Assembly (NCBI GenBank): GCA_000934665.2 | Contig: KZ538062.1 | Span: 62,001-126,000 of the forward strand | DNA: 64,000 bases | Reading direction: 5' to 3' | Origin: Catajapyx aquilonaris | Lineage: Eukaryota | Shown: in pieces, positions 59,900 to 64,000 of the stretch | Numbering within the stretch: the stretch's first letter is position 1 | How the letters are laid out: each line of letters opens with the position of its first letter | Notes under the pieces: model-generated | Seen by the model: the letters and a program-made list of their open reading frames with translations, nothing else | The model's database searches: none | Told to the model about the DNA's origin: nothing | Made by a program: the position numbers and the translations under genes

Positions 59900-60000
59900 C
59901 ACCCCTTCCGCCCGTTCCCTCCTCCCCTCGTGTCTCTTCTAGAAGCTTTTGTTCCAGACCACGCTCTTTCCCCTTGTCCCCGACTCCAAACCGGATCAAC
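59900..60000 (+). promoter_or_regulatory. Pyrimidine-rich TCT/5'TOP-like start region of CCT2
   Basis: CTCTTTCCCCTT at 59964-59975 and further pyrimidine tracts just upstream of the ATG, as is typical of translation-related snoRNA host genes. Confidence 0.45.
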
Positions 60001-63000
60001 ATGGTAAGAACACTCTCCGGGGGCCGCCCCTGGGCCGACCCGGGACTAGTATTAGCCAGAAAGTAACATGGTTATGGTTGAGAAAGAAAAGGTTGAGTCA
60101 TCTTTCTTCCGGAATGGTCCGCCGGGCGTGGTCCGCACTCCCCAATTTGGTCATGTTCTACGCTCGATTATTAACATGGGGGGAGAAAAGAAAAACCTTC
60201 CTGCACAAACCAGAACCTCGCCTGACTCCGAGCTTCTTGGCCCTGCTTAGGTGGGGCCAGGGGCAGGAGGTTGAAGGCGCAGGTAGTGCCTCAAAAGGGA
60301 AGGAGATTAATGCCTTCCATTTTTAATGGAAGGCTCCGGTGTTCTTTGTGGGCCCCTGCGGTAGACCTCTATCTTTATGTCTGGTTGCAGTCGGCCTGGG
60401 GAACGCCGAACAATGATTTAAGTGCAATCAGTATAATTACCGTTAATCTATAGCGTATTTTCATAGTCACAAGCTAATAATTACAATAAACACCAATAGT
60501 TATAGTATATTAATAATAGTTACAATATATCACATTGTAATCAGAACTAATATATAATAGTTATAATTATTTTAGTATTTATTATTTTTATTTATTATTT
60601 TTACTAGCAGGTTACCCGGTGTTGCCCGGGTATGTTGGGGTGCTGGTAAAGATAGGGGTACATATCTGTGATAGATTACCTGCTTGTCTTAGAGCGTACA
60701 GTCGACACGGATATTCTGATTGGATGTGTAAAAGGCGGAATGCGGATGGAGTTGGCCCAGGAAAAGACTGCACAGCCATGTGTTTTTCCCCTGCATTTTT
60801 GACCCCTTGACCCTCCCCTCCCCCCCAACCCCACTTCACACCCCCACCTCGTTCTATATGTTTGCTCTGGATAACTTTAGAAATGTACGCACAGATGTAT
60901 TATGGGAAATTTTGTTTTCAACACGGAGTAATATAAAGTGGTGCTGCGGGAACGTCGGGTTCGATGCCAGCCCGGGGTTCCCTCCTTCATGCCGTGCAGA
61001 GTTGGGTCGTCTCTGGCTTCGTTTCGGGTGGAATCTCTTCAGACTAATCCACCTGGTGGAGTTCACAAAATACACCGCTTGAGAATTGCACTTGCACCTT
61101 GCACATCCCCTCCCAGTCACCCTGCCCGTGGGCCCGGGCGCTACGTCAAAAAGGTTCCATCGAGACAAAATAAAGGTTCCCTCCCTGCGGTACGATGCAG
61201 GGAGGTAAATAGCTAAAAAAAGATAGGCATGTCCATGGGAATGCAAATTGATTTATTGCTATTGATGTAAGCTAATTGTTGAGGCAGGAATATGCGTGTT
61301 GTGGGAGTTAGGTACATTTTTGGAAGCTGAAACATGCGGCGTTAGATTCCTTGGAAAAAGTAACCCCCGATATGCTAATTTAAGGCGGTGTAAGGGCCTT
61401 CCCCTGGATTTCTATAAGGGACAAACATCCAAACTTCCTTATTTATAGATATAGAGATTATTTATTTTTATTATATTTTAATATATTTATTATTATATTA
61501 TTTTTGTTTCTGAGGTGAGCAGGGGTGGGGGGTGGGACGGGTTGATTTTAGGTTTATACTCACATGAGTTTTATTAGTTCATATGTTGGGGTAGCTTGCG
61601 TCTCCCTTCATCGCTGACTACCCCTCATAGGGAAATGTCATGATGACGTTGTTGTTGTTGTATAATTATTACTATGTAATAGTTATATAATATGAATAAA
61701 ATAATTTGACTGTATTTACAGGTATCCCTAAACCCAGTGCGTGTTTTAAAGCAAGAGGCGGAGGAGGAGAAGGCGGAGATAGCTCGCCTGTCGTCCTTTG
61801 TGGGCGCAATTGCTATAGGGGACCTGGTAAAGAGCACTCTTGGCCCCAAGGGGATGGATAAGATCCTTGTGGGTTTGGGTCGGCATAACCAGGGTGAGGT
61901 GGAGGTGACCAACGATGGGGCCACTATCCTGAAGGCTATTGGGGTGGACAACCCGGCAGCTAAGGTTCTGGTGGATATGAGTCGGGTGCAGGATGATGAG
62001 GTTGGGGATGGGACCACCTCGGTTACGGTGCTGGCTTCTGAGCTGCTCAGAGAGGCGGAGAAGCTCATCGACATGAAGCTCCATCCTCAGACTATTATTG
62101 CTGGGTGGAGGAAGTCCACTGACGTTGCCAGGCAGGCCTTGGAGGATGCATCTAAGGATAACAGGTATGTGAAGCCAGCAAGTACCACAGTGAGACATGA
62201 AAAGATGCTAATCATTGACTTGTATACAATCTTGGCAGTTCTGATGATGCAAAGTTCCGTGAAGATCTTCTGAACATTGCCCGCACGACCCTGTCCTCGA
62301 AGATCCTTTCTCAGCACAAGGATCATTTCTCGACTCTGGCAGTGGAGGCAGTTTTGCGGTTGAAAGGCTGCTTCAATTTGGATGCGATTCAAATCCTGAA
62401 GCAACGTGGGGGCACCCTGGATGACTCCTACTTGGACGCTGGTTTTCTCTTGCCCAAGAGCATTGGCGTTAATCAACCAAAGAGGGTAGAGAAGGCCAAG
62501 ATCCTCATTGCCAACACGCCAATGGACACAGACAAGATCAAGGTGTTTGGATCCCGTGTCCGGGCCGAGTCCACTGCGCAGGTGGCTCAGCTGGAGATTG
62601 CTGAAAAGGAGAAGATGAAACAGAAGGTTCAGAAGATACTCAAGCATGGTTGCACCGTCTTCATCAACAGGTGAGAGCACAGCATTGCTGACAATTTCAA
62701 CCTTCCCGCACAACCAGAATCCCACAGGACTCCTTGTTCCCTGGTTTCGTGACTTGCTTTTTCAAAGTGGGTCTGAAGCCAGGTGCGGGAGGGTGACAGT
62801 GTGGATAGTGCGTCAAAGGAAGGAGATTATTGTGCTTTTAAAGTGCGCTAGTGCTCCTCTATGGGCCCCCATGGTGGACCTCTATCTTTATGTCCGGTTG
62901 TGGAAGGCCTCGAGAGCGCTGGACAGTTGCTTCGTATAATAATTGCTGTTGATTAAAATAACCCAATGCAACATCGCTAATTTTGTCAAACATTCAACAG

Positions 63001-64000
63001 ACAACTGATCTACAACTACCCAGAGCAGCTGTTTGCCGATGCAGGTGTGATGGCTATTGAGCATGCGGACTTTGATGGCATTGAGCGTCTTGCACTGGTG
63101 ACTGGTGGTGAAATTGTGTCTACCTTCGACAATCCTGACCATGTTAAGCTGGGGCAATGTGATGTAATTGAGGAGGTACTGTCATTTAAATTCTTGTACA
63201 TGTTTTGGGCCTAGGTGATGATGATGGTGTTTGTTAATTTGTACTGACTTTCAGGTGATGATTGGAGAAGACAAGCTGATCAAGTTCAGTGGGGTGGCCA
63301 TGGGAGAAGCCTGCTCCATAGTTATTCGAGGTGCAACACAGCAAATCCTGGATGAAGCAGAAAGATCTCTTCATGACGCCTTGTGTGTGCTGGCATCAAC
63401 TGTCAAGGAGACGCGAATTGTGTATGGCGGAGGTCAGTATTTCCTCTAGGTATATTTGTTGCGATGACTTAATTGCTCATTGTTAAACTTTGCAGGTTGC
63501 AGTGAAATGCTGATGGCAAATGCAGTGACCAAGGCTGCCTTGGAGACTCCTGGTAAGGAAGCTGTGGCCATGGAGGCGTTTGCGAAGGCTCTTCAGATGC
63601 TGCCAAGGATCATTGCGGACAATGCAGGATATGACTCGGCACAACTGGTGGCTGAGCTTAGAGCGGTGCACAACAAGGGAGATTGCACCATGGGGCTAAG
63701 TGAGTTTGATTTCATTTCTTCACGGCCTCACAAGCCTTGGAAGCCAACTTGATTCTCAAAAAAATCTATGAATTGTGAATAGCCTGAGTGTGATGATGGA
63801 ACATCCCAAAACATTCATACAAGTATTATTCCACAATCTCTTGACATATTTCAGACATGGATGAGGGTAAGGTGGACTGCATGTCTAAGCTGGGAGTGAC
63901 TGAGTCTTATGCTGTGAAGCGCCAAGTGCTGGTCTCAGCTTCCGAGGCTGCAGAAATGATTCTCCGTGTGGACAGCATCATCAAGAGTGCTCCACGCAGG
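60001..64000 (+). CDS. CCT2: T-complex protein 1 subunit beta (chaperonin CCT2), 3'-truncated by the window
   Basis: Exons 60001-60003 (ATG only), 61722-62164, 62239-62670, 63001-63175, 63255-63432, 63496-63699, 63855->64000. Motifs [47 protein letters not shown]. Confidence 0.98.
60195..60415 (+). ncRNA. Intronic box H/ACA-type RNA, copy 1 (CCT2 intron 1)
   Basis: CCTTCC/GGAAGG basal stem, H box AGATTA 60304-60309, internal hairpin GCCTTCCAT/ATGGAAGGC, 3' hairpin CGGTGTTC/GAACGCCG, ACA 60410-60412 plus 3 nt. Paralog at 62700-62928. Confidence 0.8.
60604..61457 (-). mobile_element. Non-autonomous Helitron (854 bp) in CCT2 intron 1
   Basis: - strand begins A|TCTCTATATCTATAAATAAGG and ends with a hairpin (ACCCGG/CCGGGT, 60614-60631) then CTAG|T. 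Inserted at AT in AT-rich DNA with no TSD. Confidence 0.8.
60923..61220 (+). mobile_element. tRNA-derived SINE, diverged copy 3, nested in the Helitron
   Basis: Shares GGGTTCGAT, CTCTGGCTTCGT.TCGGGTGG, TTGCACATCCCCTCC and CCTGCCCGTGGGCCCGGGCG with the other two copies. It has a deletion in the tRNA head and a different 3' tail, and no TSD is visible. Confidence 0.85.
62700..62928 (+). ncRNA. Intronic box H/ACA-type RNA, copy 2 (CCT2 intron 3)
   Basis: CCTTCC/GGAAGG basal stem, H box AGATTA 62824-62829, internal hairpin TGTGCTTT/AAAGTGCG, 3' hairpin CTAGTGCTC/GAGCGCTGG, ACA 62923-62925 plus 3 nt. Ends ~72 nt before the 3' splice site. Confidence 0.82.

Follow-up and report, generated by a model that had tools for sequence, protein, structure and literature searches.

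How should a pair of long, structured RNAs in the introns of a chaperonin gene, with H and ACA boxes in place and no recognisable guide pocket, be classified among the small nucleolar RNAs (snoRNAs)? This question is raised by the CCT2 locus of Catajapyx aquilonaris. The window analysed here is a 64,000-nt stretch of contig KZ538062.1, and all coordinates below are window positions on the + strand unless stated otherwise. A first-pass annotation had described two related elements in CCT2 introns, and the coordinates that it gave are confirmed. On sequence comparison, with a probability of roughly 70%, the two copies are paralogous intron-encoded H/ACA snoRNA genes of the SNORA81 (HBI-61) lineage that have diverged and been remodelled. 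The CCT2 host, an added hinge hairpin and an enlarged 5′ arm with a kink-turn (K-turn)-like motif are probably what is new in this pair, rather than the family itself. The two elements are:

60195–60415, + strand: copy A, predicted mature H/ACA RNA of ~221 nt in CCT2 intron 1 (alignment, fold, boxes, covariance model)
62700–62928, + strand: copy B, predicted mature H/ACA RNA of ~229 nt in CCT2 intron 3 (alignment, fold, boxes, covariance model)

Copies A and B are selected, duplicated and atypically long predicted box H/ACA-type RNAs. Each has the succession of hairpin, H box (ANANNA), hairpin and ACA box 3 nt from the predicted 3′ end that characterizes this class, with an extra hairpin at the hinge, and the three-hairpin shape is common to both. 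The RNA ends are predicted from the ACA+3 position and from the limits of similarity between the copies, which starts at the first stem (AACCUUCC) and ends just past the ACA box; the intron flanks do not align. The pairwise alignment has a mean column identity of 79%, and copy A scores 265.7 bits with a covariance model built from both copies, a value that is high by construction. The predicted folds have energies of −105.9 kcal/mol for copy A (z −5.5) and −91.8 kcal/mol for copy B (z −3.4), each beating 200 of 200 dinucleotide shuffles. RNAalifold places 62 pairs on the two sequences together, of which 38 are the same in both copies, 10 differ in one base and 14 in both bases; none is broken. 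The compensated stems listed in the first-pass annotation, together with its middle hairpin of wholly different sequence, all fall within these 62 pairs, and its claim of a selected family is upheld by the both-side changes and the lack of broken pairs. It had also placed correctly the H box, the ACA with its 3-nt tail, the apical loop, AACCAGAA, UCAAA and the CCTTCC/GGAAGG and GCAC/GTGC stems. The parts of the two RNAs are:

60196–60303, + strand: 5′ arm of copy A (fold, covariation)
60196–60201 with 60298–60303, + strand: basal stem CCUUCC/GGAAGG of copy A (fold)
60203–60206 with 60286–60289, + strand: second stem GCAC/GUGC of copy A (fold)
60208–60215 and 60291–60295, + strand: unpaired elements AACCAGAA and UCAAA of copy A
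60304–60309, + strand: H box AGAUUA of copy A (fits ANANNA)
60312–60334, + strand: hinge (middle) hairpin of copy A, 10-bp stem GCCUUCCAUU/AAUGGAAGGC (fold)
60337–60408, + strand: 3′ hairpin of copy A with apical loop CUCUAUCUUUAU at 60367–60378 (fold; local match to SNORA81 model positions 123–148)
60410–60412, + strand: ACA box of copy A, 3 nt before the predicted 3′ end at 60415
62701–62823, + strand: 5′ arm of copy B (fold, covariation)
62701–62706 with 62818–62823, + strand: basal stem CCUUCC/GGAAGG of copy B (fold)
62707–62711 with 62808–62812, + strand: second stem CGCAC/GUGCG of copy B (fold)
62712–62719 and 62813–62817, + strand: unpaired elements AACCAGAA and UCAAA of copy B
62824–62829, + strand: H box AGAUUA of copy B (sequence)
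62831–62847, + strand: hinge hairpin of copy B, 7-bp stem, sequence unrelated to that of copy A (fold; 4 of 7 pairs changed on both sides)
62849–62922, + strand: 3′ hairpin of copy B with apical loop at 62880–62891 (fold; SNORA81 local match)
62923–62925, + strand: ACA box of copy B, predicted 3′ end at 62928

The 12-nt apical loop CTCTATCTTTAT is identical at 60367–60378 and 62880–62891. Within the window the exact 14-nt loop and GGAAGGAGATTA each occur twice (2 of 2), and the covariance model finds copies A and B alone; the pair is not a dispersed repeat within these 64 kb because the window holds only two copies. This bears on the reading that there is no RNA gene here at all and that the copies represent a palindromic repeat of the introns, the remains of a transposon or a splicing-regulatory structure duplicated from one intron to another. 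Intron 1 does hold other repeats and a 12-nt complement of the loop, as such a reading would have it, but the similarity stops exactly at the H/ACA ends, the boxes are canonically placed, 24 pairs vary without one being broken, and relatives occur on unrelated contigs, one of them a recognised snoRNA, all of which makes this explanation very improbable. If established H/ACA biology applies, the dyskerin complex would bind each RNA co-transcriptionally at the H and ACA boxes and, after release by splicing, trimming would stop at the foot of the first stem on the 5′ side and 3 nt beyond the ACA box on the 3′ side.

At gathering thresholds no Rfam family is found in the window. When each copy is scanned alone against 4227 Rfam families, the best match and the sole snoRNA match is SNORA81 (RF01241), with local scores of 12.8 bits for copy A (E 4) and 16.1 bits for copy B (E 0.76) over positions 123–148 of the 179-position model. 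The matched part is the 14-nt apical loop at the tip of the 3′ hairpin, together with the stem that closes it (consensus gGuGgaCCUCUUUCUUAAUGucCagu, copy B GGUGGACCUCUAUCUUUAUGUCCGGU). This loop is the most conserved feature of the SNORA81 model, and its consensus CCUCUUUCUUAAUG and the version in the window copies, CCUCUAUCUUUAUG, are identical at 12 of 14 bases. In the window copies, as in SNORA81, it stands on a GGAC/GUCC stem in the 3′ hairpin at the same distance (~30 nt) from the 3′ end. An Rfam scan had been proposed as the check on whether the pair is novel; it does return SNORA81 as the best match, but at scores that are far from the gathering score of 45 bits, which A and B, with local matches only, do not reach. 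Because the direct scores are so low, the copies are distant relatives of SNORA81 and not members by the Rfam criterion.

The first-pass annotation had also advised building a model from both copies and searching for it elsewhere. Public contigs were searched for the loop, any base being allowed at its two variable positions, which gave 12 viral and 7 metagenome matches. The covariance model built from the two window copies alone (R1) aligns full-length to two of the seven metagenome loci, L017 (44.8 bits, E 7e-14) and L019 (27.4 bits, E 2e-8). L019 is a bona fide SNORA81: it scores 189.9 bits with the Rfam model and lies between eIF4A-like exons, as expected for the vertebrate gene, which is found in an EIF4A2 intron. 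Three of the other 17 loci (12 viral, 5 metagenome) scored with R1, all as loop-only local matches of 12–16 bits, namely two of the 12 viral contigs and the metagenome locus L020, while the remaining four metagenome loci gave nothing. Because the loci had been chosen by their loop, a second model (R2) was built from the 5′ arm and H box only, which excludes the loop used for fishing, and was run over 27 loci with filters off. R2 recovers L017 with 29.8 bits (E 1e-5); its match to L019 is second of the 13 matches listed (11.9 bits, E 0.29) and falls exactly on the SNORA81 5′ hairpin.

L017:7–199, − strand of a metagenome contig: H/ACA RNA of ~190 nt with two hairpins (R1, R2 and Rfam alignments)

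The L017 locus has only 265 nt of flank, apparently non-coding, in which no exon was seen. Its 5′ arm is of the window type (UGCAC, CCAG, GUGC, AAA, GGAAGG, H box AGAGUA), and it aligns end to end with the Rfam SNORA81 model at 25.7 bits (E 0.005), below threshold, with the SNORA81 loop exact. By its R2 score and its loop identity, L017 joins a window-type 5′ arm to an exact SNORA81 loop. The 5′ ends agree as well, the SNORA81 consensus reading ACCUUCUU and the window copies ACCUUCC. When A, B, L017 and L019 are aligned, standard pairs fill 97.8% of the pair cells, and both partners change in 38 of the 62 pairs; none of 500 shuffles reaches this pairing and slid controls give 42–47%, with the reservation that the four-sequence alignment leans toward structure because it was fitted to the model. 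The earlier statement that the copies could not be assigned to a known family thus does not stand, since the loop is the hallmark of SNORA81 and the R1 and R2 searches, together with L017, link the copies to it.

These results also bear on the idea that the pair forms a new orphan H/ACA family, unrelated to any described, in which the loop likeness is due to convergence or chance. The lack of any Rfam family at gathering score, the E value of 0.29 for the 5′-arm model on true SNORA81 and the differences from SNORA81 in host gene and hairpin number are all in its favour. A loop identity of 12/14 on the same stem and at the same 3′-end distance, however, has a chance of ~0.005 over Rfam H/ACA hairpin loops (our own estimate), the 5′ terminus is common with SNORA81, and in L017 a window-type arm stands together with the exact SNORA81 loop, so that we regard an unrelated orphan family as improbable. 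Our literature searches found no work connecting SNORA81 with invertebrates, and among the matches listed for snoRNA and intron there was none on CCT2. The main texts of a Xenopus snoRNA paper and a human snoRNAome paper do not mention SNORA81; their supplements may list it.

If the copies belong to the SNORA81 lineage, it has to be asked whether they are guides. Vertebrate SNORA81 directs pseudouridylation of 28S U4606/U4636 in helix 96, its single known target. By our own reading of the Rfam consensus, the guide is the 5′ hairpin, with a 7-nt strand aUAAGCA and a 5-nt strand UAcAC beside the basal stem. The strand aUAAGCA can pair with UGCUUGG, which forms part of the 5′ strand of helix 96 in an animal-like large-subunit (LSU) rRNA fragment, L025; this register is our own derivation and is not taken from a published figure. 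In agreement with the first-pass annotation, no bipartite pocket is conserved between the copies at 14–16 nt from either box, and none is conserved among A, B and L017 at 14–16 nt from the H or the ACA box. Canonical pockets were also read by eye, taking the long stem, GCAC/GUGC or CA/UG as the upper stem of the 5′ arm and reading the 3′ hairpin as well, and none has guide strands common to A, B and L017. In the 3′ hairpin the copies have different internal loops, UUUGUG/GGG vs CUCUAUG/CGA. In the 5′ arm, the 14 + 14 nt that separate the basal stem from the next long stem hardly vary between the copies, yet GCAC and GUGC pair together. The pair beside GCAC/GUGC is C-G in B and U-A in L017, with a U/C mismatch in A, and to judge from these bases the adjoining position looks like an internal helix, not like guide bases.

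The window copies might nevertheless be canonical SNORA81 orthologues, whose 5′ arm would guide modification of a uridine in helix 96 (or elsewhere in rRNA or small nuclear RNA) once the GCAC/GUGC helix melts. Near-invariance of 14 + 14 nt is usual for guide strands, SNORA81 is an experimentally supported guide, and if CA/UG closes the top, the pocket top lies 15 nt (A) or 13 nt (B) from the H box by our own count. The geometry is less accommodating in other respects. With the helix opened, the distance from the pocket top to the H box would be 13–20 nt according to which pair closes it, and the long stem as upper stem leaves 19–20 nt. The candidate 3′ guide strands, CCUCAAAAG in A, CGUCAAAG in B and CAAAG in L017, differ in length and in the junction-proximal base, and because this base changes along with its GCAC/GUGC partner, an internal stem is indicated rather than a guide. 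No canonical match to helix 96 is found in L025, the sole animal-like LSU fragment. A canonical orthologue is therefore unlikely, although it is the strongest of the alternatives to what is proposed here.

The target tests used LSU fragments from other sources as stand-ins, and these show no canonical match to helix 96. Comparison of the organism's DNA contigs with a eukaryotic LSU 3′ fragment at 80% likeness gave one 82-nt piece, located downstream of helix 96, and no piece over helix 96 itself. The stand-ins comprise at least 39 eukaryote-like fragments from bacterial assemblies, 33 of which hold the helix 95–97 stretch (22 distinct versions), as well as a 380-nt fragment on a viral contig. 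The complement of the apical loop has weak matches only in these fragments, at about −12 kcal/mol.

Several results have to be set against descent from SNORA81. The direct Rfam scores of the window copies carry no significance by themselves and fall far short of the gathering score, which L017 does not reach either. Part of the R1 score of L017 and L019 exists by construction because both were fished with the loop pattern. The loop-free 5′-arm match to true SNORA81 is not significant and stands beside a noise match of 11.2 bits. The host differs, L019 lying between eIF4A-like exons and the window copies in CCT2 instead of the EIF4A2 intron of vertebrate SNORA81; this difference weighs little because snoRNA host genes are known to change. 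No SNORA81-type pocket (7 nt + 5 nt, 11–13 nt from the H box in our own consensus reading) is visible in the window copies. The duplex energies of the conserved elements with LSU fragments do not single out helix 96: in L025 its site ranks first (−13.8 kcal/mol), and other fragments have equal or better sites elsewhere. Finally, 1 of 22 distinct LSU segments offers AACCAGAA at least 7 contiguous pairs around helix 96, which is matched or beaten by 32% of 2000 random 8-mers and so is no better than chance. With these points counted, a divergent, remodelled branch of the SNORA81 lineage remains the preferred reading of the pair, on which the hinge hairpin and the CCT2 host would be lineage-specific changes.

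On this assignment, a scheme for the action of the RNAs can be proposed. The 3′ hairpin with its nearly invariant 14-nt loop would be the hallmark module of the SNORA81 family. Because neither A and B nor L017 nor the SNORA81 consensus has a usable pocket in this hairpin, it may use its loop to dock a protein or RNA partner rather than serve as a guide. The 5′ arm, which would be the working arm in vertebrate SNORA81, is enlarged here, with the pocket region closed by the GCAC/GUGC helix. The closure would leave AACCAGAA and UCAAA single-stranded in a staggered arrangement, next to a K-turn-like kink. The products would be functional H/ACA particles directed at rRNA, and they would find their partner by means of these two elements and the loop instead of a canonical 14–16-nt pocket. 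Given the family assignment, such non-canonical or non-modifying action is our tentative preference, at somewhat less than even odds; a canonical guide whose pocket opens on substrate binding is a lesser but serious possibility, and other modes of action take the remainder. A more specific proposal is speculative and rather doubtful: the non-pocket 14-nt loop might be ancient in the SNORA81 lineage, from non-vertebrates to mammals, and the CCT2 pair, its guide pocket closed, might be non-modifying, acting for example as an assembly chaperone near helix 96 by means of the loop, AACCAGAA, UCAAA and a K-turn that recruits an L7Ae-family protein, as an LSU counterpart of U17/snR30.

The K-turn-like loop, which had not been part of the first-pass annotation, lies in the 5′ arm of both copies:

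60224–60274, + strand: K-turn-like internal loop of copy A (read from sequence), with GA 60224–60225, CUCC 60226–60229 opposite GGAG 60266–60269, bulge GUU 60270–60272 and GA 60273–60274
62728–62796, + strand: K-turn-like internal loop of copy B (read from sequence), with GA 62728–62729, CUCC 62730–62733 opposite GGAG 62788–62791, bulge GGU 62792–62794 and GA 62795–62796

This internal loop fits what we take to be the K-turn consensus, a C-stem, a 3-nt bulge and tandem GA/GA. The pair flanking it covaries, being U-A in A and G-C in B (RNAalifold columns 31/101). The corresponding loop of SNORA81 likewise sets 2 nt against 5 nt, but with other bases, CA opposite UGUAA.

Two further features touch the copies themselves. 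The hinge hairpin of copy A repeats the basal-stem words CCUUCC and GGAAGG, and that of copy B has no such repeat. Because the hinge hairpin reuses these words, an alternative pairing GGAAGG-AGAUUAAUG-CCUUCC in copy A could hide the H box. In intron 1, about 230 nt downstream of copy A, the sequence UAAAGAUAGGGG (60647–60658, + strand) is a 12-nt complement (11 Watson-Crick pairs and 1 G-U) of the invariant loop CCUCUAUCUUUA. The estimated chance of such a complement is ~0.015 in ~4 kb of pre-mRNA and ~0.5 for both strands of the whole window; the complement could be fortuitous, could be left over from an inverted copy or could pair with the loop in the precursor.

The assignment of the host gene in the first-pass annotation is corroborated by the spliced exons, which read as T-complex protein 1 beta:

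60001–64000, + strand: CCT2 host gene, 5′ part (spliced exons and splice sites)
60001–60003 (ATG), 61722–62164, 62239–62670, 63001–63175 and 63255 onward, + strand: CCT2 exons

The identity between mammalian CCT2 and the tested host exon is ~80%, a level which, set beside the identities among vertebrates, indicates that the host is probably a non-vertebrate animal, and all four introns have GT..AG borders. Copy A starts 190 nt into intron 1 (60004–61721, 1718 nt). Copy B is in intron 3 (62671–63000), with 75 nt between its ACA box and the 3′ splice site. A pyrimidine-rich tract, CTCTTTCCCCTTGTCCCC, at 59964–59981, ~20 nt upstream of the CCT2 start codon, is reminiscent of the 5′ terminal oligopyrimidine tracts that snoRNA host genes often have. 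Intron 1 contains, at 60420–61720, GC-rich blocks flanked by AT-rich low-complexity tracts with short direct repeats; one GC-rich block has a tRNA B-box-like word near 60950–60975, and a perfect 10-bp hairpin lies near 61180–61210. ARAGORN found no tRNA in intron 1, and the repeats and GC-rich blocks are probably transposon remnants. At 63211–63281 (+ strand) two archaeal C/D families of Rfam, sR1 (E 0.05) and sR3 (E 2.9), match weakly on account of UGAUGA repeats and CUGA. A C/D RNA at this place was rejected and the matches were taken as chance, because the 79-nt intron 4 ends and exon 5 begins within this stretch.

The contigs used as stand-ins gave observations of their own. At least 39 contigs filed under bacterial or archaeal assemblies (L024–L062) carry eukaryote-type LSU rRNA 3′ ends, most likely as a result of contamination. 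Among the viral contigs L013–L016, L013 and L016 are one contig, the one with the 380-nt eukaryotic LSU fragment, and L014 and L015 have only a 21-nt motif in an AT-rich context.

If the link to SNORA81 holds, this snoRNA is much older than the vertebrate-based Rfam model implies, and its history includes a host switch from eIF4A to CCT2 or the reverse, the gain of a hinge hairpin and the remodelling of the guide arm, with one loop left almost unchanged. A loop that outlasts the pocket would indicate a second, unstudied function of SNORA81. The pseudouridine that SNORA81 guides in helix 96 is under study for effects on translation in ovarian cancer. On the practical side, Rfam gathering scores miss distant H/ACA relatives, and a search anchored on a loop can recover them.

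Among the known systems, U17/snR30 resembles the window pair in outline. It is a long H/ACA RNA with no pseudouridylation target, its yeast form has an internal hairpin and it occurs in multiple copies in the introns of one host. The length of ~225 nt, the three hairpins and the duplication in one host gene might accordingly suggest a U17/snR30-type processing snoRNA. U17/snR30 is, however, defined by the m1 and m2 motifs in the internal loop of the 3′ hairpin, which are absent there in the window copies. The first-pass annotation had reported both motifs as missing; this is right for m1, which is absent from A and B even with one mismatch allowed, and needs correction for m2, of which a 7-mer with one mismatch is present in copy A only, in the 5′ arm, outside the 3′-hairpin internal loop. 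The copies also differ from each other in the internal loops of their 3′ hairpins, and three scans gave no SNORA73/snR30 match at E ≤ 10, so that a processing snoRNA of this type is as good as dismissed. As to the CAB box (ugAG) that small Cajal body-specific RNAs have in their apical loops, there is no UGAG in A or B, and the one AGAG, found in copy B, is part of the 3′-hairpin basal stem.

Archaeal H/ACA small RNAs, whose upper stem has a K-turn or K-loop bound by L7Ae, offer a second comparison, since by their sequence the window copies appear to have a similar motif in the upper guide arm. Eukaryotic H/ACA RNAs are not known to need a K-turn, since Nhp2 binds without that specificity. The GA/GA motif of the window copies is absent from L017 and from SNORA81.

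The closest comparison is with SNORA81 itself. The window copies differ from it in the extra hairpin between the H box and the 3′ hairpin, SNORA81 and L017 both having two hairpins, in a 5′ arm that is ~30 nt longer with its pocket region closed by GCAC/GUGC, in two bases of the loop and in an ACA box where the Rfam consensus has AUA. L017, unlike the window copies, has no hinge hairpin and carries the SNORA81 version of the loop. With SNORA81 the window copies share the H/ACA layout, an unusual length (179 nt in the model), the 5′ end ACCUUC and a long 5′ hairpin with a 3-nt bulge on the 3′ strand; in both, the 3′ hairpin is long, irregular and without an obvious pocket, the closing stem is the same, and the models of the two match each other.

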